Notes: generated by a model from the sequence alone, not told the origin. DNA of 64,000 bases from Terriglobia bacterium (GCA_965206645.1 CBDBKE010000004.1:1888001-1952000); one strand, 5' to 3'; positions 28,110 to 47,715 are shown, counted from the first letter of the stretch. Numbers and translations are program-made.

Positions 28110-28183
28110 AACTTACGGACACTGGCAATCCTCTGAACCTGTATATGCTTGCAGTTTTTCGGTAGAGGGGTGGCTTTTAGCTT

Positions 28184-28238
28184 GTCCAGGCTGGATCGTA
28201 GGTAAGCACTAGCCCGTTGGTCGGGACCTGCCCGGCAT
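28184..28238 (+). repeat. dif-like palindromic site S1
   Basis: 46/55 identical to 40337-40391; core GGTAAGCACTA-GCCCGT-TGGTCGGGACC (28201-28228). Confidence 0.8.
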
Positions 28239-28548
28239 ATCTATCCTCCGACGAAGTGGACATTCGACCCCCGCCACACTGTCGTGATTCCACTTCCCCA
28301 CCAAAGTCAGTGCTTCTCAGGAATGGAAGAGCGTCCCGAAAACGCCGACTTACCAGAAAGAAACCCAAGGATATGCGAGAAGCGCCAGTTCCTACTCGTG
28401 CGCCTCAGACTCCCATTGCTCGACGAGATGGCACAGCCGCACAACGATCTCCGGGCGGCGCAAGTGGGTGGCATTCCGGGGGACGTCACCACCCCGTGAA
28501 CGTCCGGTTCCTTTCAGGTGATCCGGACCTACCCGCCCTGCCTCTTTA

Positions 28549-29262
28549 CTATCCCCCCAGGTAGAGACGCTTCACCTCCTCATTGTGCATGATCTCCTCG
28601 CCAGTTCCCTCGAAACGCTTTCTTCCCAGCTCCAGGACGATCGCATGATGTGAAATAGCCAATGCCCTCTTTGCATTCTGTTCTACAATCAGGACGGCGA
28701 TTCCATCGGAATTGATCTCGCGGATCTTTTCGAATACGATTTCAGTTGTCTTCGGCGCTAGGCCTAAAGACGGCTCATCGAGCAACATCAATCGTGGATG
28801 TAATAACAGGACTCTTCCCATCTCAAGGATTTGTTGCTCACCCCCACTGAGATTGCCAGCCATTTCATTTGCCTTTTCTCGAAGAACCGGAAATTTGTCC
28901 ATCACCTCCTAGATGTCGTTCTCGATCTTCTCATCGTTACGCGTGAACGCACCCATCTCGAGGTTTTCCCTGACAGTCATCGCTGGAAAATTACATCGAC
29001 CCTGCGGGACGTAAGACAATCCCCTTTTCAGCATCCCCGCAGGGTTGAGATTGGTAATATCCGAGCCATCAAACAGAACGCTGCCTCGTCGGGCTTTGAT
29101 GAGTCCGAAGACTCCTTTAACCAAAGTAGACTTGCCAGCTCCATTCGGGCCTATAACACATGCTATCTCGTGTCGCTGGATCTGAGCGGAGACTCCCTTG
29201 ATAACATCAATCTCGCCGTAGCCAGTAACATAGTCCTTGATGTCCAGTATTACGTCACCCAT
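28549..29262 (-). pseudogene. BCAA-type ABC ATPase (LivF-like) with in-frame TAG at 28909-28911
   Basis: GPNGAGKST; LSGGEQQ, LLDEPSLGLAP; the two ORFs are in the same frame. Confidence 0.88.
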
Positions 29263-29304
29263 AATTCTCGCACCATCTCGTCACCACGACGAGCCATAGA
29301 CGAA

Positions 29305-30060
29305 CTATGACCCAAAGTAGGCTTCGATAACATCGTCGTTTCTTTTAATGTCCTCCGGCCTCCCTTCCGCGAGTTGTTCTCCATAATTGAGAACGACCAC
29401 CCTGTGGCAAAGCTCCATGACGACGTCCATATTGTGTTCTATGATGCAGAATGTACACGCATTCCTATTTATTCGAACGATATGATCCATCATCTTCCTG
29501 ATCATCGTTGGATTTACGGCTGCTACGGGCTCATCTAGCAAGACGATCTCCGGGTCAGGCATAAACGCCATGGGAAACTCCAGGAGCTTCTGTTGCCCAT
29601 AGGAAAGATGTCCAGCCAGGTTGTCCTTCAGGTGAGCGATGTTTACGAGCTCCAATAACTCGGAAGCCCTTTCCTCGGCTTCCTTCTCAAGGCGCCTGAT
29701 GCGCGGAGTTCTAAATATGGATGCCAGGACCCGCTCTCCCTGATGCTGCTGTATCGCCAGCAGCATGTTGTCCATCACCGTCATTGCGGGAAATATTCTT
29801 ATGATCTGAAACGTCCTACTCAGGCCCCTAAGGGCGATTTCATGAGTCTTCAGGTTGGTGATGTCCCCCCCCCTGAAGTGGACTCTTCCCCCCGTAACCG
29901 GCAGCAGACCCGTTACGCAATTGAACAGCGTGGTCTTTCCGGAGCCATTCGGTCCAATGAGACCAACTATTTCACCCTTATTGATGTGAAGGTTAACTCT
30001 ATGGAGAGCAGTCACGCCAAGGAACGTCTTGGTCAAATCTATTGTCTCCAGTAGTGTCAC
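29305..30060 (-). CDS. BCAA-type ABC ATPase (LivG-like)
   Basis: GPNGSGKTT, RTFQ, LSYGQQK, LLDEP, IEHNM, VIEAYFG. Confidence 0.9.
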   Translation of the reverse strand: MTLLETIDLTKTFLGVTALHRVNLHINKGEIVGLIGPNGSGKTTLFNCVTGLLPVTGGRVHFRGGDITNLKTHEIALRGLSRTFQIIRIFPAMTVMDNMLLAIQQHQGERVLASIFRTPRIRRLEKEAEERASELLELVNIAHLKDNLAGHLSYGQQKLLEFPMAFMPDPEIVLLDEPVAAVNPTMIRKMMDHIVRINRNACTFCIIEHNMDVVMELCHRVVVLNYGEQLAEGRPEDIKRNDDVIEAYFGS

Positions 30061-31019
30061 GCTGTTTTACACTTCCTTTTGGAAAGGAGTGCGTCCACCC
30101 TCCCTCCAATTCCCTCGGGCATAAGAACAACCGTGAATAACAATACACAACCGTATATGATATCCTTGAACTCAGGCGCTATTCTCAGATATTCGGGAAT
30201 GAAGGTAACAAGTATCGCCCCCAGGATAACTCCATGAATTGTGCCGGAGGCCCCAACGATCACCATGATCAGAAGCATTGTGATGTAATAACAGTCTGAG
30301 AATTCAGGTCCTACGAAAGTAATATAGTGGGCTGTTACACTCCCCGCGAGGCCGGCGAAACAAGCACTGATTGTGAAATCGATCATTCTGTACTTGAAGG
30401 CTTTAACCCCACGGGCTTCCGCAAGCACCTCGTTCTCCCTGATGGAAACGAACGCCCTTCCGACCCTTGAGTGCATCATGTAGTAAATACATACACACGT
30501 AGCGGTCACTAAGGCCAGAACAAAATAGTAGTATTCCGTGGCGGTGTCGATAACGATGCGACCGAGGAAAGGGACATTTATAATGGGCCGTGCAACGCCA
30601 GGAATCCCCATGGGACCATTCGTCAGCTGAACCCAGTTTATCCATATCGCTCTAGTAATGAGCGTAAACGCTAGAGTTACGATAGCAAAAGAATGATACG
30701 ATAGCCTTAGCGCTGCAAAGCCCACCGACACCGCGACGATTGATGCCACGGCACCGGCAAGTGGCAGAGCGACAATAAAGGGAACCTCCAGTTTTATGAC
30801 CAGTAAAGCCGAGGCATAGGCTCCAACTCCATAAAACGCTGGGTGCCTCAGGGACAGCATTCCTAGGTACCCGACGACGATGTCGTAACTGAGAGCAAAT
30901 ATTATGTAGATTCCTGACAAGATGATCAGATGCATAACGTAAGGAGAGGTTATGTAGAAGGGAACCCCGAGCAAGAGAAGTCCTCCAACAATGGTGACCA
31001 GAGGCCTCCTTCTGCCCAT
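30057..31019 (-). CDS. BCAA-type ABC permease (LivM-like)
   Basis: AFYGVGAY, LTNGPMGI, SRVGRAFVSIRENE; some aberrant substitutions. Confidence 0.88.
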   Translation of the reverse strand: MGRRRPLVTIVGGLLLLGVPFYITSPYVMHLIILSGIYIIFALSYDIVVGYLGMLSLRHPAFYGVGAYASALLVIKLEVPFIVALPLAGAVASIVAVSVGFAALRLSYHSFAIVTLAFTLITRAIWINWVQLTNGPMGIPGVARPIINVPFLGRIVIDTATEYYYFVLALVTATCVCIYYMMHSRVGRAFVSIRENEVLAEARGVKAFKYRMIDFTISACFAGLAGSVTAHYITFVGPEFSDCYYITMLLIMVIVGASGTIHGVILGAILVTFIPEYLRIAPEFKDIIYGCVLLFTVVLMPEGIGGRVDALLSKRKCKTA

Positions 31020-31031
31020 ATGCGTTAGCGC

Positions 31032-31897
31032 CTATATTCCTATCTTTCTGCCAAATAGGCCGTGTGGCTTAAACAGCAGTACGAGGATCAACATTAGGAA
31101 AGCGAACACATCTTCATACTGCAAGGAAACGTACGCCACGGCAAAACTCTCGACGATGGCCAAGATGAACGATGCGTAGATCGTCCCCTTCACATTGCCA
31201 AAGCCACCCATGATGACTACTGCGAAGCATTTCGGGACCAAAAGCAATCCCATCACTGGATGGATGGCCATAATGGGAGCCACGATAGCGCCGCCAAAAC
31301 CAGATAGACCGGCGCCCAATGCGAAGGCAATGGTTAAAATCTTGCGACGTCGATTCCAGCAATACGACATGACTCCTTGTTATGAGATACGGCCCGGAAG
31401 GCTTTACCAGTCTTTGTGCGGTGAATGAAGAAATGCAATCCGGTGAAAATGATCAGGGCACACACAATGATCAGCAGCCTCTGGAACGTGATCACAACTC
31501 CGAATATGTGAATGTTCATACTCGCGAGGTCCATGATGATTGTCCTGGGATTGGGTGTCCAAAGCAGTATGACACCGTTTTGCATGATGATAGATATTCC
31601 AAGGGTCGAAAGTAGCGGTAGCTGCCATGCCTTTCCAATCAGAGCACGGATGGCAAATCTCTCTACGATTATCCCAACGATGATCATCAGGCCGACCGAA
31701 ATCAGGATCGCAAGTGGATAGGAGAGCTGAGCCGTGTAGGCCAGAAGGGTGATATACGCCCCGAGCGTGTAAAACTCGCCCTGGGCGAAATTCACGACCT
31801 CAAGGATTCCGAACACGATGGTGAGTCCCACTGCGACCATCGCGTAGACGGCGCCGAAGAACAGGCCGATCACAATGAGCTGAAAGAAAGTCTCCAT
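31032..31897 (-). pseudogene. BCAA-type ABC permease (LivH-like), frameshifted near 31350
   Basis: GLTIVFGILEVVNFAQG, TKTGKAFRAV; second frame FAVVIMGGFG, LLFKPHGLFG. Confidence 0.88.
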
Positions 31898-32337
31898 GCG
31901 CAGGCTTACGCCAGGCCGTTCCGAGGAACGCTATCACCCTACGAGCGCTTGCGTTTTATTTGTTGCCCTGGCCTAGTGTGCTTTCTTTTCCCAGGCTTCC
32001 CAGTAGCCTTGGGGTCTGCCGACTTCCACAGCCTTCATGACCTTTACCTTGCCATCGTCGATCTTCGCGATGACCACCCATGTCCACGCCTGATTATGTT
32101 CGTCAAACCTGACATGTCCAGCGATTGTCTTCAGATCCACCTTTGTCAGTCCTTCCCTTATGGCGTCGGGTGTGGCTGCTTGTGATATCCTGATTGCCTC
32201 CGCGATCAACTGAACACCAACATAGCTATAAGCGGAATGTTCAATGAGGTCATATCCCCACCTCGCGATATAATCCTCCTCGAACTTCTTGTTCATCGGA
32301 TCCTGTATCTTGGATACCAGGATTCACAGCCAAACAA

Positions 32338-35033
32338 CCCGGATTTCCTTTTTGGAAACGCAGCGGCAACCTTCAGCTAACCTCCAACGTCAATGTTGAT
32401 ACTGGTTGCAGCATCAATCGGAGCGTTCGGAGGCGTAAACCCAATGGGTGAGAGCGGAAAACAGGGATTTCAGCTGTCGTTCAACCGATTCCTGCGAGTC
32501 GGATTTCAGGGATCACGGGTGACTTCCAATGGTGGACTGATTCTGGTCTGGGAGTTGGATGAGCGTCTGGGATTCAGCGAACTCATTGACGAGCACCTGA
32601 CCGATTCGCGGGCAAACAATGCTCGGTTTTCTTTCGCGGACTTGCTGCGGCAGTCGGTCTACAGTCGCCTAGCTGGATACGAGGATGTAAATGATGCCGA
32701 GCGGCTGTCGCAAGACCCGACCTTTCGGCTGATTGGTTCAGAGAAGACTTGGGAACGAGGCGCGGCGCTGACCTCCAGGTTGCAAACTTTCGAGACGGAG
32801 ATGCTGGCGAAGGTGGAGAACTTCGTCGGGTTAGCCCGGATCAACCGGGAACTGATCGGAAAGGTCGAAGCCTTCCAGTGGCACTACCGAGCGGTGCTGG
32901 ATATGGACTCAACCGAGATTCCGGTCTGCGGGGAGCAGGAACAGAGCGCCTACAACGGACACTTCGAGTCCACTTGCTATCACCCGCTGCTTTTGTTCAA
33001 TCGAGACGGCGACTGTCTGGCGGCCCAGCTCCGTCCGGGCAACGTGCACAGTGCCGAGGGTTGGGAGAAACTCCTGTTACCCGAGATTGAGCGCCAGCAA
33101 AGAATGGGAAAAGAGATTGCGTTTCGGGCGGACGCGGCCTTTGCCAAGCCGGAGGTGTACGAGGCATTGGAGGAACGGGGTGTGAAGTACGCAATTCGCA
33201 TCCCGGCCAACGATATTCTGCAGCGAGACATCGAAGAGCTACTGAAACGCCCCGTGGGAAGGCCCACCAAGAAACCGCTGGTCGAGTACAAGGGGTTCTT
33301 GTACCAGGCAGCCGGTTGTGACCTGCCGGCTTTCTTCGGACCACCGATTACTGGAGAACAGCGCCAGTCGGCATGGTTAAGTCGCTCTCGTGTTCTTCTT
33401 GGTCAGCGTGAGCCGGCATCGCCGGCGAGCGCCCACCGTCATCCGAGCCAGCACGGAGCTGCGCTTTGAACTCGGCTGGCGTCAGATAGCCAAGGCTCGA
33501 GTGCGGTCGCACGTCGTTGTAGTGCCGTCGCCATTGCTCGATCCCCACCTTCGCGTCCACGCGGTTCCGAAACCACTGCAGGCTCAGATACTCGTCGCGG
33601 AACTTCCCGTTGAACGATTCGTCGGTCGCATTCTGCCACGGCTTGCCCGGCTCGATGAGCGCGGTTTCGATCTGCGCCTGGAGCAGCCACCGGAGAATCG
33701 CACCCGCGACAAACTCGGGGCCGTTGTCGGACCGGAGGTAACGTGGGGCTCCGTGGACGCTCACGAGCTGCGTGAGCACCTCGATAACGCGCCCGGACCG
33801 AATGCCGCCGGCCACGTCGATCGCGAGTGACTCGCGGGTCCATTCGTCGACGACGGTGAGGCACTTGAGCGTCTGCCCATTCGCGCAGGTGTCGAACACG
33901 AAGTCGTACGCCCAGACGTGATTGACCGCAGTGGCGGGCACCGGGCGGGGCCGGCTCAGGGCGACCCGGCGCCGCGGCCGCCGCCGAGGCACCTGCAACC
34001 CCGCCTGGCGCCAGAGGCGATGGGTCCGGTCCGTGCTCATCGTGTGCCCTTCGCGTTTTAGGAAAATCCGAATCCGGCGATAGCCGTACCGCGGATACTG
34101 CGCCGCCAGACGACGCATCGCGGCCAGCGCCGGGGCATCCCGGTCGACCAGCCGCGACTGGTAGCCCAGCGTGGACCGTGCGACGGAGAGCAAGGCGCAC
34201 GCGCGGCGACCCGACAGACCGCGTGCACGTGCATACGCGACCTGCGGCCGGCGCACGCGTGCGCCTACCATTTTTTTCGGGTGATCTCCTTGAGCACGTC
34301 GATCTCCAGATCTCGATCGGCCACCATCTTTTTCAGCCGGCCGTTCTCCTGCTCGAGCTGCCGCAGCCGCTTCACATCGGCGGGCTCCAACGTGCCGAAG
34401 TGTTTCCGCCAGGCGTAGAGCGTCTGGGCGCTGACGCCGTTCTTTTTGGCCACCTCCGGAACGGGCCGCTGATCGGCCTCGCGGAGGATCGTCACCATCT
34501 GCTCTTCGGTAAACCGGGTCTTCTTCATGGCTCCCTCGTTTCTCCGAGGGCGCCATTCTCTCAGGCTTCAGCTGGTCCGGAAATCGCCAGGCAGGTCAGT
34601 TGGAAGACGGCTCGAAGGGTGCTGGCGAAAGTAGAGCATCATTCCGGGGAGTTGTTCCCGCGAGTGGGGTTCATTGTAACGAATCTGACGCTGCCGAATC
34701 GGGCGGTGGTGCGGTTCTATAACAAGCGCGGCACCGCAGAACAGTGGATCAAGGAAGGCAAGCAGGCGGTGAAGATGACGCGGCTCAGTTGCCACAAGTT
34801 CCGATCTAACGAGGTACGGCTTTGGCTGACGATCATCGCCTACAACCTGGGCAACCTGTGGCGACGGCTAGTGCTGCCACAGAGAATCGAGAAATGGTCC
34901 TTGACGAGCCTCCAGCAGCGGCTGGTGAAAACCGGAGGACGGCTCCTAAAACACTCACGGTACTACTGGCTCCTGCTGGCCGAGGGCCATTTGACCCGAC
35001 GGCTGTTTGCCAGCATCCTGGGGCGGATCGATG
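32338..35033 (+). mobile_element. IS1380-family element, interrupted by an IS3 copy and lacking its right end
   Basis: CCCGGATTTCC left end; transposase from 32444 (LDMDSTE, FRADAAFA, FYNKRGTAEQWIKEGK); stops abruptly at ~35033. Confidence 0.92.
33319..34598 (-). mobile_element. IS3-family element, species B copy 1 (1280 bp)
   Basis: Ends TGACCTGCC; orfA 34265-34528, A7 slippery site, orfB DDE motifs; 4-bp TSD GTTG. Confidence 0.97.
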
Positions 35034-35948
35034 ATTAGTCCTTGGGCGATTTCTTTTCCCACCAGCTTCACAAATTGCTCGTTGACCATCTCGCCCTGAT
35101 TGAATACAAGCATCTTCATTCCGAGCTCGGTATATTGTTTCATAATGACAGCACCGCTTCCCGTCCTTGCGGCCACGAGAAGCGCATCTGGGTTAAGCCC
35201 TTTGATTTTTGTAAGTACGGACATGAAATTAGTCTCGCCTTCTTCATAAGAATCGACGTTGAGGACCTTTCCACCTTCACTTTCGACGACTCGTTTGAAC
35301 GAACTCGCTACCCCTCGCCCCCAGTCGTCATTGACGAGCAGAAAGCTGACGTTCTCTCCCCCAGTTCCACGATCATCTGTTGAGTTCCACGATCATCTTG
35401 GCAAAAACGGTAGCATTCATGTCGTCGGGAAGGTTGGCACGGAAGATCCATTGATTGCCACCCACCCCTGCTCTCACCGTGATCATCGGGTTCGTTGAGG
35501 TCTCAACGACATGTGGAATCTTTCCTGTTGATTGATCGGCATGGCCGCCAGCGCGGCCGAACTGCATCCGTGTCCGATTGTGGCTACAACTCTATCTCTC
35601 GTAATGATCTTTCTTGTGGCCGAAACCGATTCTGCAGGATTGCATTTGTCATCCGCCGCATACAACCTAAGGGAGCGGCCCAACAATCCACCGGCAGCAT
35701 TTATCTGCTCCACCGCAAGCGTCGCACCCTTCACGCCTTCGCTGCCCACAAGTGCAACAGAGCCCGCAAGGGGACCAACATACCCAATCCGGATCGATTC
35801 TATTTTAGATGCACAAGAAGAGAGGAAAATGAAGGCCATTAACGTCGCCGTGACTATCCCTTTGTTCTGCATGATCCTTCCCTCTTTTTCAGTGTTACGT
35901 TCCTTGGACCTACACACCTTCATCTTTTCTGTCTCTATCATCTGCCCC

Positions 35949-36662
35949 TCAGAATTGTTTCAGTAACCTTCCGAAACCCGAGATGGAATCTCCACATCCA
36001 ATCTTTCGGAGGGCAGCCCGGAAGGTCGCTTGATTGCTCGTCACCACCGGTTTCTTGCAGTCCTTCTCCAATCGTTTTATGATGTCCATCGTTCGGAAGT
36101 TCGTACAGCTAATGAAAATCGCGTCCGCAGAGGAATCATCCATGCCTTTTACGAATCGGTATGTATTGTCTGGCATCTCGCAGCCGATTAGGAAGGCATC
36201 TCTAATTTCCAGCCCTTTTATCGTGAGAACTCCGAAACCGTTTTCTTCGAGATACAATTTCTCCAATCGATTAATCTCATCAGGGTAGGGTGTCGCAACG
36301 ACAAGCATCTTTGCCTCGAGGTTTTTCAACGCTAGTACCACGGCCCCTGATGTGGTCACTGAAGGGATATGCGAGGTTCTCTCGATTCTCTCCTTCAGCT
36401 CGTCTTCACCCGTTCCACCCTTCACAAAACTGCCGGACGTGCAAGTGAAGGCAATGACATCCACGTGTGCGCTGGCCAATTCATCTGCGGCCCTTTCGAC
36501 ATGCTTGAGCATCGCCAAGGTATCGTCATAGTCAGTGCTGGTGTTTCTTATCCTCGCCGCAAAACATGAAACTCCTTCAGGAACAGCCCGATTCATTTCT
36601 GGCTTCGCAACTGTGTTCGCGGAAGGGACCAACAATCCGATTTTTCCCCGCCAGCCGTACAT
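35949..36662 (-). CDS. Maleate cis-trans isomerase / Asp-Glu-hydantoin racemase family protein
   Basis: IGLLVPSANT, FTCTSGS, VATPY, IFISCTN, KPVVTSNQA. Confidence 0.88.
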   Translation of the reverse strand: MYGWRGKIGLLVPSANTVAKPEMNRAVPEGVSCFAARIRNTSTDYDDTLAMLKHVERAADELASAHVDVIAFTCTSGSFVKGGTGEDELKERIERTSHIPSVTTSGAVVLALKNLEAKMLVVATPYPDEINRLEKLYLEENGFGVLTIKGLEIRDAFLIGCEMPDNTYRFVKGMDDSSADAIFISCTNFRTMDIIKRLEKDCKKPVVTSNQATFRAALRKIGCGDSISGFGRLLKQF

Positions 36663-36688
36663 GTTCAACCTCCTTTGCACCATCCCAT

Positions 36689-37938
36689 TGACCTGACCGG
36701 CACTTTTTGTACCAAGTGGAAAGAGAGAGAATCCACTTGAGGAGGAAGTGAGGTCATGCCGACAAGGAGTTACAAGCCGGAGCAGATTGTAGCGGTGCTA
36801 CGGCAGATAGAAGTGCAGATGGGGAACGGGAAGACTGCGCCCCAAGCCTGCAAAGAAGCTGGAATCCACACCCAAACCTACTACCGGTGGCGGAAGGAAT
36901 ACGGCGGGCTGAAGGTGGTGCAGGCAAAACGGCTAAAGGAGTTGGAGAAGGAAAACACGCGGCTGAAGCGGTTGGTAGCGGAGCTTTCTCTGGAGAAGCA
37001 GGTGCTGCGGGATGTGGCACAGGGAAACTTCTGAGCCCTGAGCGGCGGCGTTGTGCGGTGGAACGTGCGTGGGAGCAACACGGGTTGTTGGAACGGCATG
37101 CCTGCCGGCTGCTGGGGCAATGGCGAGGGACACAACGATACGAGCCGATTCATCGGGTGGACGAGGATGCTCTGACCCGAGCGATCATTGCCCTGGGAGC
37201 GAAGTACGGGCGATATGGCTACCGGAGGATCACAGCGTTGCTGCGGAGTGCGGGCTGGGAAGTGGGCAAGGACCGGGTGCAGCGGATTTGGCGGCGGGAA
37301 GGGCTGAAAGTGCCGCAAAAACAAAGGCCGCGAGGACGGCTGTGGCTGAACGACGGTTCCTGTGTACGACTGAGGCCGGAGCGACCGAACCACGTGTGGA
37401 GCTACGACTTCATGAGTGCCAGAACGCACGAGGGGAGAACGCTGCGGCTGCTGACCTTGCTGGATGAGTACACGCGGGAATGCCTGGCGATCCGGGTGGA
37501 GCGGAGGATGGGCAGCCAACAAATCATTGAGGCGTTGTCGGACGTGATGTTGTGGCGAGGGATACCGGAACAGATTCGATCCGACAATGGTCCCGAGTTC
37601 ATCGCCAAACAACTGCGCCAGTGGTTGGCAAATCTAGGGACCGGGACACTGTACATCGAACCGGGCAGTCCCTGGGAGAACGGGTACTGCGAGAGTTTCA
37701 ATGGGAAGCTGCGGGACGAATGCCTGAATGGAGAGATCTTCTACTCGTTGAAGGAGGCACAGGTGGTGATTGAACAGTGGAGGGTGCAATACAACACGGT
37801 GCGGCCGCACTCGGCGCTCGGCTATAGGCCCCCGGCGCCGGGGGCCTATAGCCCTCCCCTGCCACTGAAACCAGTTTCACAGCCCCAGGCTGCGATGTAA
37901 ACTCTCACTACGGTTGGTACAAAAAATCGGTCTGGTCA
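36689..37938 (+). mobile_element. IS3-family element, species A copy 2 (1250 bp)
   Basis: Near-identical inverted copy of 20618-21867; no TSD. Confidence 0.96.
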
Positions 37939-38597: not shown

Positions 38598-38647
38598 CGG
38601 TTTGCTCCTCCAACGGAGGAATTGTCTCACGACTGTCGGCCAAGCGG

Positions 38648-38730
38648 GCCTAACGATGGGCTGCAACAGAGCCGGGCTGCAGCAAAGCCGCCAAAAGCGA
38701 GGGTTTGGCTGCAGCGCCTGGTCGTTAGGC
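38648..38730. other. Integron attC-like site (83 bp)
   Basis: GCCTAAC...GTTAGGC (RYYYAAC/GTTRRRY) with internal GGCTGCA/TGCAGC inverted boxes. Confidence 0.7.
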
Positions 38731-38758
38731 ACAACGTGCAGGCAAAGCGTGAACGACT

Positions 38759-38995
38759 ATGCATAGTGACAAGCTAGGCCAGTTGTCACCGGAGATCAAC
38801 CTTTGCCTGGGTGAAGTGCTGGAGTTCAGACGCTCGCTCACTGAGAAGGCCGATCGGACTTGTGCTCTTCTAGCCGGCTCCTTGTGGACGGCGAGCTCGA
38901 GAAGCTCATGAGAGAACTTCTCGTCGGGGACGCCGATGTTGCCGGCCGGCTCTTCAGGCCGGATGGGACGCAGGGTCTTGGAAGGGCATGTTGAT
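38759..38995 (+). pseudogene. Frameshifted MtlR/MltR-like gene-cassette fragment
   Basis: FRRSLTEKADRTCALLAGS / LVDGELEKLMRELLVGD in two frames; lies between GTTAGGC and GCCTAAC. Confidence 0.45.
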
Positions 38996-39017
38996 GCCTA
39001 ACAAGCCGCTGCAGCCG
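38996..39017 (+). other. Truncated second attC (left half only)
   Basis: GCCTAACAAGCCGCTGCAGCCG, a typical attC start; no matching GTTRRRY downstream. Confidence 0.55.
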
Positions 39018-39070
39018 GGCAGGCACACAGGCACGTGAACCCGGGGGCGCAAGCTTTGTCATTCGTCACA

Positions 39071-40165
39071 CTACTGCGCGTGGTGCGGATGATAGCCTCT
39101 AACGTTGAGCCGGACCCGGTAAAGGCTGGTGTCGATGGTCACATAGAGCACGTTCGCCTCTTCGCCGATGCCGAATTCGACATTGCTTGGCAAGCCCACT
39201 AGTTTCTCTGCGCCTTCCTGGTGGGGCGGACCCGTGGGGATGAACCCGAGTTCTTCGCCTTCGGGATTTATGATCACTACCCCGGGTCGTTTCGCGCTGC
39301 GGACCGCCAGATAGATGTTTCCTTCTTCGTCCACGGTCATGCCGTCGCAGCCGGCTTGGTCTCCAAAGTCCACTAGGGTCTTCCGTTCGCCCGATACCAA
39401 GCCATCTGGACTGAGTGGGAAAGCATAGACTTTCATTGGTCCCTGCGTTGCGGGCGGCGCATTAGGGTCGTCGACATGCTCACTCCCGTTGTCGAGGTCG
39501 GCTGCGTAAAGCGTTTTCTCATCCAGGCTAAGGGCCACACCGTTCGGTTTAGCTACCTCGCGAGTAATTTCAATGACCGTCCCATCTTTGTTGACCCTGA
39601 AAATAGCGAAGTAGTCGAGATCGCGAGTTTCTGGGCCCAGGTATCGCGGATCGCTGAAGTAGACGCGTCCCCGGTTGTCGATAGCGACGTCGTTGGGCGC
39701 GTTAAATTTCTTGCCCTTGTAGTTGTCCGCCAATGTTGTGCGCTTGCCGGTTTCAACGTTCCAGCGCGAAATCTGCCGGCCGCCGTAGTCGGCCCCCTCG
39801 GCGGCAATCAAATGACCCTCGGCGTCGAAGGCTAGCCCGTTGGACTTGTGGCTGTCTTTGGCAAAGACAGTGGTCTCGCCTGTTTTCGTGTCGAAGCGCA
39901 GGATCATGCCTTTATCTTTTCCGAAGGCGATGTCCGAAAAGTAGATGCTGCCGTCGGGTGCCACTGCCGGTCCCTCTGTCAGGCCTCCCTTGATGTCGGC
40001 CGTTCGCGTGAAAACGTGTTCCAGCTTGGCGTCGGTCGGGACGATTTTTCCCTCGACTGGAGCAGTGGCCTTCTCGGGCGCTTTTGGTGTACCGCATGAA
40101 AACAGAAATCCTGTTATCAACAGGAAGGGGAAAGTGGTTTTGCTAAGTTGCATGGGTTGTTCCAT
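39071..40165 (-). CDS. SMP-30/gluconolactonase/LRE family lipoprotein
   Basis: Lipobox LFSC, TEGPAV, SNGLAFD, FNAPNDV, YFSDP, PNGVALS, CDGMTVDEEGNIY. Confidence 0.92.
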   Translation of the reverse strand: MEQPMQLSKTTFPFLLITGFLFSCGTPKAPEKATAPVEGKIVPTDAKLEHVFTRTADIKGGLTEGPAVAPDGSIYFSDIAFGKDKGMILRFDTKTGETTVFAKDSHKSNGLAFDAEGHLIAAEGADYGGRQISRWNVETGKRTTLADNYKGKKFNAPNDVAIDNRGRVYFSDPRYLGPETRDLDYFAIFRVNKDGTVIEITREVAKPNGVALSLDEKTLYAADLDNGSEHVDDPNAPPATQGPMKVYAFPLSPDGLVSGERKTLVDFGDQAGCDGMTVDEEGNIYLAVRSAKRPGVVIINPEGEELGFIPTGPPHQEGAEKLVGLPSNVEFGIGEEANVLYVTIDTSLYRVRLNVRGYHPHHAQ

Positions 40166-40336
40166 TCATCACGACACCTACCGCGAACCGACGGTCTTCC
40201 CGGTCCGTGCACGCGTCGTAGTGGCGAAAAACGCGTTTGCGAGGCTCTCGCGTCCCGACGCTTAGCCCCCAGAGCCTGGCGCTTCAGACACGGATCGACC
40301 AATTATGCCAGATAGATCCTCCCGGCGTCCAGATAC

Positions 40337-40391
40337 GTCCAGGTTGGAACGTAGGTAAACACTAGCCCGCTAGTGTGGACCTATCCGGCAT
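40337..40391 (+). repeat. dif-like palindromic site S2
   Basis: Core GGTAAACACTA-GCCCGC-TAGTGTGGACC (40354-40381); an inverted half-site precedes it at 40305-40320. Confidence 0.8.
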
Positions 40392-40405
40392 TGCTGAACC
40401 CGACC

Positions 40406-40930
40406 TCAGCGCACTTTAACGACGAAGTAGAGGAAGGGCGCCTTCACTTGCTTGAACCAGTGGGGCGTGCTTTGAGGCACGATGATGACGTCGCCTTTAA
40501 CTAACTGGTGAGTCTTGCCGTCGCGGATGGATGCCCCAAGGATCTCATTCGGCGCGGTTGTCTTTCCGCCCACGACCGTGCCTCCGGTGACGAAAGTTGC
40601 GGTGCCTCGGAGCACATAAAAAATATCCGTATCCAACAGGTGTACTTCAACCTCGCCGGCCTTTTCCCGCCGACTGGCGTGCACCTGGTAGTTGCGCCCG
40701 GGCTCTTCGCCCAGCACCACCGCGCCCCGGTCAAAGGCGGCAGCCACCTGGGTGGTGTCGAAATAGAGAACCGGCAGAGAGGTCGTGCTGCTCGCAGTCA
40801 GGGCACCGACGGCGGTTTTCGCCAGCGCAACATCAACAGTCAAAATCCTCTTGTGGTCCGCCGCGAGAGAGATCGCCGACACCGAGACCAATAGAAAGAG
40901 CGTCGAAACCAGGGTTGATCTTCGAATCAT
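40406..40930 (-). CDS. Secreted cupin-domain protein
   Basis: EVHLLDTDIFYVLRGTATFVTGG, GDVIIVPQSTPHWF; signal peptide; RBS GGAGG. Confidence 0.85.
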   Translation of the reverse strand: MIRRSTLVSTLFLLVSVSAISLAADHKRILTVDVALAKTAVGALTASSTTSLPVLYFDTTQVAAAFDRGAVVLGEEPGRNYQVHASRREKAGEVEVHLLDTDIFYVLRGTATFVTGGTVVGGKTTAPNEILGASIRDGKTHQLVKGDVIIVPQSTPHWFKQVKAPFLYFVVKVR

Positions 40931-40950
40931 GAACCACCTCCTCGAACTAT

Positions 40951-40994
40951 TGCCGTGACAGATAGGTCCCGACTAGTCGGTTAGTGTTTACCTA
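40951..40994 (-). repeat. dif-like palindromic site S3 (inverted)
   Basis: Minus-strand core GGTAAACACTA-ACCGAC-TAGTCGGGACC (40965-40992). Confidence 0.8.
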
Positions 40995-41018
40995 TCCTTA
41001 CTAAGGAACACCATACCA

Positions 41019-41071
41019 TCCAGGCAGAACATTGGTAAACGCTAGCCCGTTAGGGAAGACTTATCCGGCAT
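41019..41071 (+). repeat. dif-like palindromic site S4
   Basis: TCCAGG...GGTAAACGCTA-GCCCGT-TAGGGAAGACT-TATCCGGCAT. Confidence 0.75.
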
Positions 41072-41340
41072 TTAGGATCACGGGGCAACCATGCGAGCAG
41101 GCTATGCCACCGGGGAATCAGTGGCGCGGCTAAGGGCATAATGAAGAGATGTGGCAGAGTCTAGGTCGCGCGGGCCTTAAACTGTCAACGACGGCAGAGC
41201 TAACGGCGCTTGGCCGGGTCGCCGCGTTGACTTGGCTGCGGGCGGGGCGTAGCATGGCCGGCAAGAGGGCGGCGTGTGACCGGCCAGACTCTGGAACCGA
41301 GCAAGGGTTGAAACCGGAAATTCCGGCTAAGGGACACCAT

Positions 41341-41676
41341 ATGAGCGTTCGAGCAATTCCCGCAATCCTTCTTGTCACGTTATTTCTGTCCAGTTGTGGC
41401 AAACCAGTTCCGGCTGACAAAGCAGACTACGTTGGCCAGTGGAGGGCCCCAGAAATGTATCTGTTAATTACACAAGACGGGAGCATAGAATACGAACGGC
41501 TTAAGGAAGGGAGAAAAACGTCAATTACTGGACCTCTCCAAGGATTCCAAGGCGACGATTTCTCTGTTGGCATCTCATTCCTTTCAACCATCTTCGTCGT
41601 TTCCAAGCCGCCTTACCAAGAAGGCGGTAGATGGGAAATGGTCGTGGACGGTGTTGAACTAACTAAGGATCAATGA
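41341..41676 (+). CDS. Small hypothetical lipoprotein
   Basis: Lipobox FLSSC-GKPVP, YVGQW; lower GC than core genes. Confidence 0.75.
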   Translation: MSVRAIPAILLVTLFLSSCGKPVPADKADYVGQWRAPEMYLLITQDGSIEYERLKEGRKTSITGPLQGFQGDDFSVGISFLSTIFVVSKPPYQEGGRWEMVVDGVELTKDQ

Positions 41677-41781
41677 GCAGGTCGGTAAATTGACCCTGGG
41701 GTAGTGGCTGAGGTCAACGAGTCGAGGGATGGGAAGCGCGACAGACGATCCGGTTTACGTTTCCAATCCCCACCGTCTCAT

Positions 41782-43439
41782 CCGGAATTTCCATTTCGAG
41801 CTTCCTCTTCACCCGAAAAGCTATGCCTCGTACCCTGTCGTGTCAACCGCAAACAGCTCTGGCCTCTTTGAGGTGGTAGTGCGGCACATTTTGGCTGTTC
41901 TTCGGAGTCGCTGTGCGGGTTTCGCCTGCCCAGCCTGCCGCGCCGCTGACACTTATCCGGCCCGACCACTTCTGAGCACCTAAAATTACCCTCTCTCCCG
42001 GTTCGCTAGCCGTCTGGCAGCGGCAGTGCCGAGATCGTTCGCAGCATGCTGCTGAACAGCCTCCGGCTCAAGTGCCCTTCGGCCAGCAAAAGCCAGTAAT
42101 ATCGCGCATGTTTCACCAGCCGTCCTCCCGTTTTCACCAACCGCTGTTGCAAGCTCGTCAGGGACCAGTTCCCGATTCTCTGTGGCAGCACCAGTCGCCG
42201 CCACAGGTTGCCGAGATTATAGGCAATGATGGTGAGCCACAGCCGGACCTCGTTCGACCGGAACCGGTGACAACTGAGCCGCGTCATCTTCACTGCTTGC
42301 TTTCCTTCTTTGATCCACTGCTCCGCTGTCCCCCGCTTGTTGTAAAACCGCATCACCGCCCGACTTGGCAGAGTCAAGTTCGTAACGATAAACCCTACTC
42401 GCGGGAACAGCTCCCCTGGATGATGCTCCACCTTGGCCACCACCCTGCGGGCTGTCTTCCAACTGGCCGCTTGGTATAGAAAGCCCTTGAACTCCACCAA
42501 CGGCTTCTTGCTGGGTCTCCCCACCGGCCGAGTCAGCAACTCCTCAATGTCCCGCTGTAGGCTGTCGTTAGCCGGGATGCGGATGGCGTACTTTACCTCC
42601 CGCTCCTCCAGAGCCTCGTAAATCTCCGGCTTGGCAAAGGCCGCGTCGGCACGAAACACCACTTCCTTGCCCAGCTGCTGCTGCCGCTCGATCTCCGGCA
42701 GGAGAAGTTCTTTCCAGTCCTCGGCGCTGTGCACGTTGCCCGGTCGCAGCTTGGCCGCCAGACAGTCACCCTCGCGATTGAACAGCAACAACGGGTGATA
42801 GCAGCTCGACTCGAAATGCCCGTTGTAGGCACTCTGCTCCTGCTGGCCGTAGACCGGAATCTCGGTCGAGTCCATGTCCAGCACCACCCGTTGCGGGGAA
42901 TCCATAGCTTCCGCCCTGGCGATTAAATCCCGGTTGATCGCTGCCAAACCAGCCAGGTTCTCATCTTGCGTCAGTAGTTCTGTCTCGAACGATTGCAGCC
43001 GGGAAGTCAACGCGGCTCCTCGCTCCCAGATCTTTTCTGAACCGATCAGCCGGAACGTCGGATCTTGAGAGAGCCGTTCCGCGTCATTCATATCTTCGTA
43101 ACCCGCCAAGCGGCTGTACACGGACTGGCGCAGGAGGTCAGCAAAGGGCAACCGTGTGTTCTTTCTCCGAGGATCGGCCAAGTGCTGTTTGATGAGTTCT
43201 CCGAATCCCAAATGTTCGTCTGATTCGCGCACGAGGATCAGGCCGCCGTCGGAAGTAACCCGCGACCCCTGGAAATCGACCTTCAATGCAGCATTGAAAG
43301 AGAACTGAAAGGGCTGATTTTGCCTCTCACCCACTCGGTTTCTACCTCCGGAAGCTGTATTGACGCTGGAACCGGCATAAATATTGGCGTCGGAGGTCAG
43401 TATAAGGTTAGCTTTGGAGTTTTAAAACGGAAATCCGGG
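41782..43439 (-). mobile_element. IS1380-family element, complete (~1658 bp; transposase 42006-43334)
   Basis: Ends CCCGGATTTCC / CCGGAATTTCC; intact 442-aa transposase; no TSD. Confidence 0.94.
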
Positions 43440-46400
43440 GGAAGGACCAGCGGGACGGCGCCCGTCGCAACGCCGGTGGGCACCACCACGTTCACCTGGT
43501 AGAGGCCCACAAAGCCGGGCGCCAGACCCTGATAGGCTATCGCGGCGTCGAGCCCGCCGATGGTCACCGTCACCGGCAGTTGCACGGTGCTGAACGGGGG
43601 CGCGGGGGCTCCCGTCTCCACCTGCTCCTGCACGGCGCCAAGACCGGTGCAGAAGATCTGTATCGTGTCTCCAGCGCGCACCGGGTTCTGCGCCGTCACC
43701 AGCAGGAACGAGGCGTCCAGGATGGCGGCGTTTTCACCCGCAATGAAGATGCCCGGCTGCACCGGAGCAATCCGGTAGTTCTGCGGTGAAGTCAGCAGGT
43801 CACCTACGTTGACGGTGACCCCAACGTCATCGCCGGGGCGGGTCTCAAACGGCACCTGCGCGTTGATCTGCCCCGGGCCGGCGAAATACAGCGGCGCATC
43901 TCGATCGCCGATCCGTACGCTGTCCCCGGCCAGGTCCCGCTCCAGCGGCAGCTGGGTGGCGAAGTTGTTCTCGGTCGCGAAGCGTGCGCCGAACAGGGAG
44001 ATGATGCCACCCGGCGCCAGCGGCCGCCGCGCGGTGAAACCGGCTCCTTCCACCACTCCCTCGGGAAACAGCACCGGCAACTGCACGGCTCCGGGCGCCG
44101 CCGCCGTGGAAACCGTGAAGGAGCGGCGCGCCGTAGCAAACGAGGGATGCAGCGCCACAAACGTCACCGTCACCTCGGCCGCCTCGCTCACCGGCGTCCA
44201 GGTGCCAGTGTAGAAGCCGTCGCCCAGTGACCGCAGCGAGATATTCAACCCTTCGATGCTGGCCAGCACGGTGGCATCGCTAACGACTGTGCCGCAGGTG
44301 TCTACCGTCACCGCCACCAGCACCCTGGGGAAAGACACCGGCAGGCTGAGGCCATTGCCGATGGTGGTGGCCAGCAGCTCCAGCCCCGATGGAGCGCACT
44401 GGGCCGTGCGTGGCGGACCCACCGCCTGCGTCCGGAGCGCCGTGCCCGGCGGCGTCACGATCAGCAACACGCCTACCTGCTGCGGCACGCCTGCGGAGAA
44501 GGTGCCGGTGATGGTGCCCCGGCAAACGCCAGCCGCCAACCGCGCCTGGTTCACCGAAACCTGGGTCGTGAACGGACCCCCCGACGCGGTCCCGCTCGTC
44601 GGGCTCACCATCAGCCAGTCGCCGCCGGAACTGGTCGCAGCCACGAAGTCAGCTGTGAGTGTTCCTCCCCCAGCGTTGCTCACCGTCAGGTCTTGCTCCG
44701 CCAGCAGCGCGCCATCCTGCTCGGCGACGAACAGCATCCCGTTAGGGCCAATGTCCGCCGTTACCGGCGTGTTTGTAGGCACCACGTGCAGCGTCGTCGT
44801 GAACAGTTGCGGATCGTTGCTGGCCCCCGGCGCCGATACCGTCACCAGTACCTGCAAGACCCCGGCCGCCAGCCCCGACGGGTTCGCCGCCAGAGTGATC
44901 GCCGAAGCCTGGGCCGCGCCGACGCCGGCCGTCCCCGACTGCGGGGAAGCCGTCAGCCAAGGAGGCAACTCGGAGAGGGACCAGCTCACCGGCTCAGTCC
45001 CGTTGTTCAACACCCGCAGCGTCTGTGCCGGCGGCGCGAATCCGCCTTCCGCCACCCGGAACAGAAACGCCGTCTGGTCCAACAGTAGCTGGCCGCCCGG
45101 CGAGGTCACGACCGCCTGCACGGGAACCGCAATGGAAAAGCCAGTATCCGTATTGGTGACGCTGACCACCGCCTGGAACACTCCGGCGGCGGCCAGCGCG
45201 GCAAAGTTGACCTCCACGGTGACAGTCGCCGGCTGCTGTAAGGTGGCGCTGCCGGAGGTGGGAGAAACAGTGAGCCAGCCGCTTCCATTCAGCAGCTCCA
45301 CCGTGGCGCTCCAGTTCACCGTGCCGGCGTCGCTGCCAACCTGCAATGCCTGCTGCGCAGGGGGATCACCGACGGCCCCGGAAAAACTTAGCGTCAAGGG
45401 CGATACGGTCAAGGCGGAAACCGGAGCCGTTCCGGCCTGGGTCACCGTGAAGGTCTGCCCGGCAATCGTCATCGTCCCGGTGCGCGAACTGGCGCCGGGA
45501 TTGGCCGCCACCGAGTATTCCACCGTGCCATTGCCACTGCCGCTCTCGCCCGAGGTGATGGTGATCCAACTGTCGTTGCTTGACGCCGTCCACATACACC
45601 CGTCTGGTGCCATCAAGGCCAGGCTGCCAGTTCCCCCACTGGCCGGGAAGGATTCACTGGTCGGGGCAATGGAGAAAGTGCAGCCCACTGCCACGTCGCT
45701 GATCTTGACAATGAAGGCGTCCGAGCTTCCGGCCTTAGTGGCCTGAAAAGGGCTTGCCGTGGGGAAGTTGGTCGAATCGGTGTTGCCGGTCACATAGGCG
45801 CTACCGGAGGTGTCCACAGCGATGGCGTTACCATCATCGTTGCCACTGCCGCCCAGGTAGGTGGAGTAAACCAAAGCGTTGCCTGCGGCATTCAATTTCG
45901 TCACAAAGGCGTCCCGGCCGCCGCCGTGGGCCGGCTGGATTGGATTGGCCGTGGGGAAGTCGGCCGATTCAGTAACGCCAGTCACATAGGCGTTCCCGGC
46001 GGCGTCCACGGCGATGCCTCCGCCAAAACGATTTTCAACGCCGCTGCCTCCCAGGTAAGTGGAATAAACCAGAGCGCTACCGGAGGCATTTAATTTCGTC
46101 ACAAACACGTCGCCGCTGGTGGCGCTACTGGCCTGGAAGGGACTTGCCGTGGGGAAGTCGCCCGACCGCGTCAGGCCCGTCACATAGGCGTTGCCGGAGG
46201 TGTCAACAGCGATGCCTGCGCCCTGATCGAGGCCGTTACCGCCAAGGTAGGTGGAATAAACCAGAGCGCTGCCGGCGGTATTCAATTTCGTCACAAACGC
46301 GTCCACGACACCGAAAGCGAAAGTAGGCTGGAAGGGACTGACCGTGGGGAAGTCGGTCGACTCGGTGTCGCCCGTCACGTAGGCGTTGCCGGCGGCGTCT

Positions 46401-47506
46401 ACGGCGATGCCCTCACCATTGTCGAAGCTACTGCCGCCCAGGTAGGTGGAGTAAACCAGAGCGTTGCCGGCGGTGTTCAATTTCGTCACAAAAGTGTCGT
46501 CGTCGGAGATGTTGCCGGCGAAAGCGGCCTGGAAGGCATTGGCCGTGGGGAAGTCCGTCGATTTCGTAGTGCCCGTCACGTAGGCGTTGCCCGCGGCGTC
46601 TACGGCAATGCCGCGGCCACGGTCCCGGGCGCTACCGCCGAGGTAGGTGGAGTACACCAGTACCGGATCAATGATCAGAGGCTTGCCGGCATCATACGCA
46701 GCCACCTGGAAACCCACCTGGTACCCGCCGTTGAGCACATAAGACCCGGCGATTTCCCGCCGGATGCCATCTACCTCCTGGTAGACCAGAGGCTTGTGCT
46801 GGCGGATTTCCCCGCCAGCGGTCTCAAGCACCAAGTCGCCCTGGGCATCAATCCGGAGCTTCTCCACGCCGTCAAAGCTGAGCGCGATGGCGTCCGGATC
46901 GGCGCCAGGAGCGACAACCAGGTCGTATTCCAGTTGGCGCTGGTTGCCGTAGTAAACCAGGTCCACGCCGGGATAAACGTCCTGATACTGCACCCGGGCA
47001 TAGTTGGGGACGTCCGTGTGCCACTTGTCGGGATCGTTTCCGAGGAAATAGTTGCTCTTGCCGGGCAGTTCCTCCAGCCCGGTCACCCGTGGCGATGGGT
47101 TGGCGCCGACCAGCTTCATACGTAGCACGGCCGTTGGGGCAGCAGGAGCCTGCTCCGCTTCTGCATTGCGCGGCGTCCCATTGTCTCTGCGCGGTCTGTT
47201 GGACGCGACGGGCTTGCGCAAGGCCAACACTGCCTCAGTGGGAGTCAAGAACAGGGTGTAGCCGCTGCCCCGCGACAGGAAGTCCACACGGTTGTCGGTC
47301 TGCCCCTCATTGGCTTCAAAGCTTAGCGGCAGCTTGCCGTAAGCCTCCACGACCTGCAGCTTGTTGGCCGCCGGAGTGTTCGCTGTGGAGGATGGCTTAT
47401 GGACAAGGAGTGGGCCTGTGTCGAACTTCATCAGGCCGATGGCCAGCAGCCCGAGCGGTAGCAGCGCCATTCCCGGTCCTGCACTACGAAGCAAGGTCCT
47501 GCGCAT
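43440..47506 (-). CDS. Large secreted protein: SBBP beta-propeller repeats, BACON-like domains, TIGR03437-like C-terminus (last residues replaced by IS1380)
   Basis: LPLSFEANEGQ, repeated LVYSTYLGGS..GIAVDAAGNAYVTG.T.S.DFPT, WLTVSPTSG, GLAPGFVGLYQVN. Confidence 0.88.
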
Positions 47507-47666
47507 GGCTGTCCCCCTCGGATGTGAAGGACCAAAGATTATCGCCTGCGGGGTCGCATGTCCACTTGCCGAGAAAATGTTCTGCGGCATGGGCCGCATT
47601 TCGCTCGCATCTATTCCTGGAAGCTGGTCCACTGGAAGTTGGCGAGATACCTCCTTCTCATCAGCG

Positions 47667-47715
47667 ATGCCGGATAAGTTCCGCCTTGTATCTCAGTCTA
47701 TGTAGAATCCTCCAG
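47667..47715 (-). repeat. Divergent dif-like site S5 (inverted) at the end of the accessory region
   Basis: Minus-strand CAAGGCGGAACTTATCCGGCAT matches consensus CTAGTCGGGACCTATCCGGCAT at 18/22. Confidence 0.5.

Follow-up and report, generated by a model that had tools for sequence, protein, structure and literature searches.

Mobile insertion cassettes are transposase-less elements having IS-like inverted ends, some of which carry passenger genes, and the eukaryotic Pack-MULEs are analogous to them. The pdif modules are modules of Acinetobacter plasmids which are bounded by Xer sites. BIMEs are described as built from two types of palindromic unit in alternating orientation joined by motifs (PMC2817692), and GTAG is given as the tag of one REP super-family (PMC3733652). 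Here we surveyed a family of repeated 11-6-11 sites present in a window of 64,000 nucleotides from a Terriglobia bacterium (the whole stretch of DNA that was analyzed), and compared them with these systems and with integron cassettes. A literature search found no account of such elements in Acidobacteria. At slightly less than an even chance, we read the sites as a conserved module lying inside the ends and junctions of mobile cassettes that carry cargo but no transposase, and of their solo and doublet derivatives. This cassette family would have spread across a Terriglobia genus in the DNA between genes.

The first-pass annotation had reported a conserved element at 28184(+), 40337(+), 40951(-) and 41019(+), and all four (here S1 to S4) were recovered. 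The 11-6-11 core positions in the window were confirmed, none being expected there by chance: the pattern GGTAAACACTA-N6-TAGTNNGGACC with up to 3 mismatches was found at 28201(+), 40354(+) and 40965(-) and never in 100 shuffles, and S4, which has 4 mismatches to it, was recovered by nhmmer (E 1.6e-10). The spacers had also been read correctly, being GCCCGT or GCCCGC in S1, S2 and S4 and ACCGAC in S3. Two classes are distinguished by the centre, GCCCGT in class A and ACCGAC or GCCGAC in class B, and their conserved flanks differ as well. The arms pair at 8 of 11 positions around the centre with an invariant AAA/GGG mismatch, and two inverted arms of ~11 bp with a 6-bp centre make up a geometry of the Xer/dif type. 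Conservation extends well past the 28 bp of the core into the class-specific flanks, over 45-100 nt, and B-long copies have an insertion of ~60 nt in the centre. Variants of the left and right arms are statistically independent, flank types up- and downstream of the core occur in all combinations, and one site (C4:2196797-2196823) has two 'a' arms.

The sites had been taken for a local array, an idea which does not survive the genome-wide count: nhmmer (E<1e-3) returned 77 copies across the whole 4.4-Mb genome and the pattern search with up to 3 mismatches 55 (reversed control 0), counts that are slightly raised by two identical repeat pairs (C1:264438/C4:3754 and C3:194417/C3:902074). By our own gene calls, which are crude and cover 81% of the genome, every one of the 77 is intergenic, and the 67 host gaps (16 convergent, 32 tandem and 19 divergent) are used approximately in proportion to gap length. 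Both classes are present in all four genomes of the genus, this one and three congeneric ones (55, 29, 8 and 37 copies). A genome of another Terriglobia family (G017) has 9 related copies at up to 3 mismatches, and there the core sequence and the doublet architecture are conserved and the arm pairing, or hairpin, is not. Such conservation of core and doublet in another family exceeds what is usual for selfish repeats and counts against the cassette reading.

The same distribution bears on a reading in which the elements are a REP/BIME-like mosaic of structural or selfish palindromes with no gene-moving role, where homologous recombination causes the rearrangements and modules appear bounded only because repeats pile up between genes. 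It suits the intergenic position of every copy, the gap types that follow gap length and the breaking of metagenome contigs at the elements, which are extragenic palindromic units in alternating orientation and in mosaics. The two types of imperfect palindrome alternate with conserved linking motifs, as is described for BIMEs (PMC2817692), and the second repeat described below, U, begins with the GTAG of the REP super-family (PMC3733652); inverted doublets are a further likeness to REP, BIME and REPIN-RAYT systems (PMC3733652, PMC2817692 and PMC3337134). We nevertheless hold this reading to be quite improbable. Both Y1-transposase genes found in the genome have palindromes of another, unrelated kind on their flanks, for which reason a link to RAYT was rejected, whole genes are carried, and a pairing that always joins unlike classes is unexpected under random accumulation. 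Target duplications are also present, which RAYT/HUH mobility is not known to produce. In the window, S2 (z -2.9) but none of the other three copies folds better than shuffled sequence, and G017 keeps the sequence, not the hairpin. The idea of a hairpin or RNA motif was discarded on these two points together with weak covariation and the independent arm variants; pair 11-24 is A-T in 27, G-T in 22 and C-G in 4 of 64 distinct cores. The sole match to Rfam in the window, at gathering thresholds, was a tRNA.

The alternating orientation and bracketing of genes that had been noticed in the window hold for the genome. Among pairs 0.3-6 kb apart, 14 of 22 face inward and all 14 of those join an A with a B; among pairs within 300 nt, 9 of 11 are back-to-back, 8 of the 9 being A with B. 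Doublet spacing and doublet junctions are constant, and units also occur in head-to-tail arrays with constant junctions. Cargo runs from the B end in 10 of 14 modules and its functions are unrelated between units, with cupins, reductases, a globin, cytochrome P460, kinases and TPR proteins as examples. Inside the U-bounded units we found no recurrent or multi-copy protein and no transposase belonging to the units, only nested, independently bounded IS copies. Among the four congeneric genomes, the modules vary both in where they stand and in whether they are present at all. Integron cassettes (attC) share the promoter-less or single-gene modules, the imperfect palindromes between them and the arrays that vary among strains; in contrast to integrons, no intI lies beside the arrays here and the sites alternate instead of running one way, and no R''/R' core-site pattern of attC was seen by eye in the elements.

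The repeat U starts with GTAG, is ~50 nt long and is itself an imperfect hairpin (consensus GTAGTGGGTCAGTTTCCGG); placed in inverted orientation at unit ends it forms terminal inverted repeats, in U-type units only and not at S2-S4. U termini number 49 in G000, 26 in G003 and 22 in G001, and the reversed controls have none. A core lies 20-110 nt inward of U in 22 of the 49 in G000, and about half of the cores sit 50-60 nt inside U, none of the four window cores being of this type. The motifs CGACTA and CGTTA inside U resemble the core. Flanking 10-mers are identical at 9 or more of 10 positions in 7 of 12 inward-facing U pairs of G000, where 0 of 132 mismatched pairings reach 9, and the other 5 of the 12 pairs show no duplication; in G003, 3 of 5 pairs score 9/10, one of them a 308-bp unit without cargo. 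The target sequences which are duplicated around units (~10 bp, direct) are unrelated. In the sister species G003, empty sites are present for the 8.6-kb array C4:758247-766859 and for the 2.9-kb unit C2:192569-195446, whose two flank alignments overlap by 10 bp. These two sites, in which the unit is absent and one copy of the 10-mer is present, establish insertion. The units range from 0.3 kb without cargo up to 9 kb with several genes.

Terminal inverted repeats, target duplications with empty sites, absence of an internal transposase, and presence or absence between relatives are therefore features shared with MITEs and mobile insertion cassettes. Unlike these, the ends here are ~100 nt long and composite (U hairpin, 11-6-11 core and class-specific flank), left and right ends are of distinct classes, head-to-tail arrays are formed, and no cognate IS was found. 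For the last point, six IS families of the genome were compared with U: an autonomous element with U ends was not found in the genome, and the IS1380-like, IS21, IS256-like, IS30-like and IS5-like ends are unrelated to it. These five IS types were thus rejected as a source of U or of the cores, the nearby IS copies being independent insertions. It had been said at the outset that a match to the ends of a known IS or MITE would speak against a recombinase system; the unit ends are indeed MITE-like, and they belong to no family that could be named.

According to the cassette reading, a complete unit would run from U through a class-A core, a cargo of 0.3-9 kb and an inverted class-B core to an inverted U'. 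A DDE-type transposase acting in trans would cut at the U termini with a 10-bp stagger, and the palindromic core and the CGACTA and CGTTA motifs in U may be internal binding sites of the transposase or of an accessory protein. Back-to-back B/A doublets would be abutted-end junctions resulting from head-to-tail insertion or tandem formation, and U-less copies, for instance the four window cores, would be derivatives, with modules reshuffled mainly by recombination between dispersed repeats. Several points weigh against it: besides the missing autonomous element and the 5 of 12 U pairs that lack a duplication, only about half of the cores are of U-type, and random transposition alone does not predict the A-with-B polarity, for which a further rule has to be assumed (end-targeted insertion or tandem formation, for example).

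In the window, a back-to-back junction of two U termini 10 bp apart (CCTGGCGGGC) lies at 27715-27790; their interiors are truncated, no core is adjacent, and junctions of this type are also present at several other loci. S1 (28171-28240, plus strand; class-A core 28201-28228 with flanks) has a degenerate U-like start (GTAGAGGGG) ahead of it at 28171, and is part of a ~285-bp stretch (28157-28450) which is absent from the orthologous place in G001. An SMP-30/gluconolactonase-like gene (39071-40165, minus strand; PF08450) has a class-A remnant in its upstream region, namely a half-site at 40303-40317(-) comprising the end of the right arm and the 3' flank. This half-site, which had been placed at 40305(-), is real: the same upstream region in G003 has a complete class-A element and U. 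S2 (40337-40395, plus strand; class A, core 40354-40381, centre GCCCGC) faces the 3' end of a cupin-domain gene (40406-40930, minus strand), the cargo of a module A>(S2) ... <B(S3). S3 (40951-41005, minus strand; class B, core 40965-40992, centre ACCGAC) lies 27 nt upstream of the cupin start codon and forms a back-to-back doublet with S4 (41016-41075, plus strand; class A, core 41036-41063). No clear target duplication was found around the S2-cupin-S3 module, and the transposon reading applies to S2-S4 only by analogy since no window core is of U-type.

An IS1380-like insertion sequence of 1658 bp (41782-43439, minus strand), of which the genome has ~20 near-identical copies, is outside the repeat system; compared with G001, it marks one of the breakpoints of an IS-mediated inversion of 268 kb. 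The outer sites had been viewed as the two ends of one accessory block, which this breakpoint refutes; because of it, the site at 47667 once stood in a different neighbourhood. That divergent site (47650-47715, minus strand), upstream of a gene for a 1411-aa DUF7948/SBBP/BACON protein, was found to retain class-A flanks around a core that has decayed. A truncated class-B core, of which the left arm and half the centre remain, was detected by nhmmer at 59366-59386(-), i.e. C4:1947366-1947386 (E 0.021); neither this core nor the U junction at 27715-27790 had been listed by the first-pass annotation.

A further reading, which sharpens the first-pass proposal, treats A and B as heterospecific recombination sites having the same arms and different 6-bp centres, each recombining only with its own class. 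Excision between consecutive A sites would free a circle that carries a single cargo plus a B/A doublet. Arrays A> g <B A> g <B would then be built up as circles re-integrate at any A or B, much as in recombinase-mediated cassette exchange, of which this would be a natural version. The pair statistics (14/14 inward, 8/9 doublets A with B) are predicted by it without extra assumptions; the constant doublet spacing, flank types that assort in all combinations, independent arm variants and the two-'a'-arm site at C4:2196797-2196823 are in line with it. So is one DNA metagenome contig in which 40336 is joined to 41015, omitting exactly S2, the cupin gene and S3, a segment with class-A sites in direct repeat, S2 and S4, at its borders. 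The pdif modules likewise share the 11-6-11 form, sites alternating around unrelated genes and classes defined by the centre. Still, the 40336/41015 joint, whose shorter side is only 39 nt, falls ~25 nt away from the core on the outer edge of the upstream flank, the break in G002 lies 9 nt into the S2 flank, that of the half-site inside the right arm, and that of the doublet C4:1205223 between its two cores. All resolved breakpoints are at outer edges of elements, inside an arm, or at U termini with ~10-bp duplications, and 0 are in the 6-bp centre. U-type units move with target duplications, and the ~60-nt insertion in the centre of B-long copies also argues against the model.

A linked recombinase and a likeness to the host dif were looked for as well. 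None of the 33 integrase-like matches in the genome is closer than 1.7 kb to a core, and its two Xer-like genes are unlinked to cores. The single candidate host dif found by a motif search, C4:400159(-), TCGTCTGATAA-GAGATA-TTATGTCAACT, has no likeness to GGTAAACACTA or TAGTGGGGACC. Unlike pdif modules, then, the arms differ from the candidate host dif, conservation exceeds 28 bp, the sites are found genome-wide on the chromosome, the breaks fall outside the centre and the outer repeats show target duplications. Of the tyrosine-recombinase cassette array proposed earlier, the centre classes, alternation and variable modules stand; its locality, dif likeness, linked recombinase and central breakpoints do not. 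The movement evidence points to transposon-like insertion over recombination of the Xer/dif type, and the heterospecific-site model is in our estimate rather unlikely. Two other crossover schemes were also dropped: a 7-nt AAGGAAC or a 13-nt motif shared between doublet halves is inconsistent among doublets, and an attL/attR reading (A and inverted B as hybrids of a-a' and g-g'), prompted by the likeness of the B centre to the A centre's reverse complement, fails because the two still differ at 2 of 6 positions.

The elements might instead be portable promoters, operators or 5' leaders, with a core that binds a regulator or sigma factor and copies that spread with paralogous genes; this we judge very unlikely. 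Some class-A copies read GGAAC-N17-CGTT over the upstream flank and centre, which we take to resemble ECF-type promoters, and a class-A copy is found 60-100 nt upstream of each of the paralogous small secreted proteins. A sigma-70-like match at 40331..40302 overlaps the half-site flank, hairpins with G-T pairs on the forward strand lie downstream of cores, and the running of cargo from the B end (10/14 modules) would also agree. RNA contigs begin at 41077, which is 5 nt past S4, and stop at 40281/40282, a short way downstream of the half-site, but they are treated only as a hint, because both runs come from one study and contigs do not reveal true transcript ends; parts of the window without RNA cover are uninformative. 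On the other side, sites are not arranged upstream of and oriented toward genes as a TF operator or promoter would be: orientation to the next gene is co-directional in 39 and convergent in 38 cases (by the crude own gene calls), 16 of 67 gaps lie between convergent genes, and S2 and several of the best GGAAC copies face 3' ends. The unrelated cargo functions and a conservation of 45-100 nt, far beyond the needs of an operator, also oppose it.

Strict A-with-B pairing and constant doublet junctions are unexplained by simple transposition, so a second step at the cores may be discoverable, which may be recombination or end-targeted insertion. One form of it, in which A/B cores are heterospecific recombination sites inside transposon ends and a recombinase encoded elsewhere swaps single genes, seems to us improbable; if true, Terriglobia would possess a natural platform for exchanging cassettes, different from both integrons and pdif modules, that would serve chromosomal and transposon-borne arrays. 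In practical terms, the repeats break metagenome assemblies at module borders and account for mosaic synteny among related genomes. If the cassette reading is true, ordinary genes of metabolic and stress type are moved about between chromosomal sites in a soil Acidobacteriota genus as small, transposase-less, repeat-bounded cassettes, a route of genome plasticity distinct from integrons and ordinary composite transposons.

The window was read directly and searched with the core pattern GGTAAACACTA-N6-TAGTNNGGACC (two 11-bp arms around a 6-bp centre, <=3 mismatches), and core elements S1 at 28184(+), S2 at 40337(+) and S3 at 40951(-) were found in both ways, with no match in 100 shuffles. S4 at 41019(+) was found by direct reading and has four mismatches to the pattern; it is still recovered by the profile (E 1.6e-10). 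The first-pass annotation had placed four elements at these positions and had given their spacers correctly, GCCCGT or GCCCGC in S1, S2 and S4 and ACCGAC in S3, and its half-site (40303-40317, minus strand) and divergent site (a decayed copy at 47667, minus strand) are genuine remnants. The Rfam search of the window gave a tRNA only. The elements do not form the local array that had been proposed: in the window's genome, G000 (4.4 Mb in four contigs, C1-C4), the pattern has 55 copies against none in the reversed control, and the profile built from these copies finds 77 genome-wide (E<1e-3), all intergenic by our own gene calls (3830 genes covering 81% of the genome, from a codon model of our own). 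Each of the three further genomes available for the genus has both core classes (29, 8 and 37 copies, the genome with 8 being 62% complete), nine related copies were found in a Terriglobia genome of another family, and 12 of the 41 genomes searched gave any core match.

The two classes, A and B, are recognised by centre and 3′ flank. Class A has the centre GCCCGT, then CTATCCGGCAT as its 3′ flank and a hairpin after it; class B has ACCGAC or GCCGAC, then CTATCTGCCAAG or CTATCCACTGAA as its 3′ flank and after it a hairpin unlike that of class A; a few class-B copies carry an insertion of ~60 nt inside the centre. The arms are identical between the classes and an invariant AAA/GGG mismatch is kept. 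About half of the copies of each class have a second repeat upstream, U in class A and U′ in class B; U starts with GTAG, forms an imperfect hairpin in itself and gives termini like GTAGTGGGTCAGTTTCCGG. The copies without U have short flanks (u1, u2) and are often paired into back-to-back B/A doublets whose cores are ~42 nt apart. All combinations of upstream and downstream flank types were found around the core. None of S1-S4 is of the U type, S3/S4 being one such doublet, and a U′-10 bp-U junction lies at window 27715-27790. One site of G000 (C4:2196797-2196823), found also in the congeneric genome G001 (locus L031, 7500-7526), reads GGTAAACGCTA-GCCCGT-TAGTGTTTAC and is matched by the profile on both strands because both its arms are of the 'a' type, instead of the usual asymmetric a/g pair.

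The arrangement of the cores in G000 was tabulated with the identical locus pairs C1:264438/C4:3754 and C3:194417/C3:902074 counted twice; among 11 neighbouring pairs less than 300 nt apart nine are back-to-back, eight of these being A + B, and 14 of the 22 pairs 0.3-6 kb apart are inward-facing, every one of them A + B. In 10 of the 14 inward-facing modules, transcription of the cargo runs from the B end. The cargo between cores is diverse and includes a cupin, SDRs, an aldo-keto reductase, radical-SAM enzymes, hydrolases and a Ser/Thr kinase, together with globin, cytochrome P460, PsiE, an RRM protein, TPR proteins, SBBP/DUF7948 proteins and PSD1/DUF1501. The sites do bound gene modules in alternating orientation, as had been suggested. 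Near-identical 3′ ends (...TVTIAVQ*) were also seen in unrelated secreted proteins of G000, GSDH-like (C2:364643-366610), SBBP/DUF7948 (C4:758793-761351) and a third without Pfam match (C4:66376-67965), with an inverted class-B element 52-54 nt after the shared end, and this C-terminal domain appears to travel together with the class-B repeat.

The flanked genes vary in presence, a check which the first-pass annotation had asked for, two U-ended units being absent from the congeneric genome G003 and the window array from G002. The first is an 8.6-kb array (C4:758247-766859; U-A> SBBP <B AKR <B A> globin P460 <B-U′, arrowheads giving orientation) whose orthologous site in G003 is uninterrupted; in G000 the 10-mer of this empty site occurs twice, flanking the array (CAAGATTAGG, CAAAATTAGG). 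The second is a 2.9-kb unit (C2:192569-195446), for which the flank alignments overlap by 10 bp in G003, with the duplication CCGCGCTCGG and CCGCGCGCGG in G000. U termini number 49 in G000 (<=3 mismatches) and, at <=2 mismatches, 26 in G003 and 22 in G001, with none in reversed controls. Of 12 inward-facing pairs in G000, seven have flanking 10-mers at least 9/10 identical, against 0 of 132 mismatched pairings reaching 9 of 10, and in G003 three of five score 9/10, one being a cargo-free unit of 308 bp. The duplicated 10-mers have no common consensus and are hence target duplications, not a recombination core.

Site-specific recombination at the cores, the mechanism first proposed, is retained as the main rival, since it accounts for the all-hetero A/B pairing better than plain transposition. 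An arm of the core had been described as weakly similar to the XerD arm; against the mechanism, the only dif-like site found in G000 (C4:400159) has arms unrelated to the core; of 36 integrase-family matches 33 were measured, and none has a core nearer than 1.7 kb, the two closest being fragments. The breakpoints compared between genomes fall at outer element edges, within an arm or between doublet halves, and none was seen within the 6-bp centre.

At the window locus, 24771-41780 is colinear with G001 at 96-97% identity, the IS copies being absent there. Beyond this part G001 runs on into the homologue of G000 C4:2189000-2198254, and G000 therefore has 268 kb inverted relative to G001, between two IS1380-like copies in opposite orientation. 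Undoing the inversion gives an array of the form A>(S2) cupin <B(S3) A>(S4) orf175 SDR <B A* SDR ... <B. G001 lacks S1 with ~285 bp around it, the difference beginning at the U-like GTAGAGGGG; in G002 the whole array is missing, with divergence from 9 nt into the upstream flank of S2; and in G003 one copy of the gluconolactonase-like gene has a complete <A-U at the place of the window half-site. In a DNA metagenome, one contig runs from 40336 straight into 41015 and thus omits precisely S2, the cupin gene and S3. The joint is about 25 nt off the core, where the upstream flank has its outer edge, and is weak evidence, coming from a single contig with a shorter side of 39 nt. DNA contigs from two metagenomes end at elements, their loose ends matching other flank types.

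The IS1380-like copies marking the inversion (1658 bp; window 41782-43439 and C4:2198254-2199911) belong to an extreme IS load of the G000 genome, with 127 DDE_Tnp_1 matches, about 20 IS1380-like copies and relatives at 85% and 77% identity, about 12 IS21, about 16 IS30-like, 8 IS256-like and about 23 copies of a 1062-bp IS5-like element. The window copy also removes the 3′ end of a 1411-aa DUF7948/SBBP/BACON gene, and a branched-chain ABC transporter operon (28549-35941) is disrupted by IS insertions which G001 lacks. An islet of ~3.1 kb (24841-28109), also absent in G001, is bounded by a 59-bp direct repeat (24871-24929, 28051-28109) derived from the 3′ end of a tRNA gene (24841-24924). Within the islet are a C-terminal integrase fragment (25051-25224) and genes for two response regulators, and it appears to be a tRNA-integrated element that has decayed.

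A promoter or operator role is only hinted at by RNA contigs of one study, with starts at 41077 and ends at 40281/40282, and by a sigma-70-like match at the half-site; element orientation relative to the next gene is even (39 vs 38), and the 67 host gaps (16 convergent, 32 tandem, 19 divergent) are near expectation from gap length. The mosaic look of the elements fits a REP/BIME-RAYT system; target duplications count against that reading, as do the two Y1-transposase genes of G000, both flanked by their own palindromes unrelated to the cores. These IS200-like genes lie at L034 (C4:708578-711883) and L035 (C4:114372-117572), and one palindrome pair begins with CGTC (GGCACGGCT-loop-AGCCGTGCC); similar hairpins, GGCAGGCTTCAGCCTGCC, occur at the G002 junction (L107), and the genes with their palindromes may represent another REP/RAYT-type system of this genus, distinct from the cores. 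Y1 transposases with long flanking inverted repeats are noted for Acidobacteria in PMC3733652.

For the transposition of U-ended cassettes, a putative DDE transposase acting in trans would recognise the U termini, and the core with the related CGACTA and CGTTA motifs, whose order is swapped between U and the cores, may serve as internal protein-binding sites. Doublets would be abutted-end junctions left by head-to-tail insertion, and copies without U, such as S2-S4, may be derivatives reshuffled through recombination between repeats. The cores lie 50-60 nt inside the units, and the polarity is strict, one end having class A and the opposite end class B. Insertion of the U-ended units duplicates 10 bp; the genes they carry are arbitrary, a transposase is absent from them, and the units vary from species to species.
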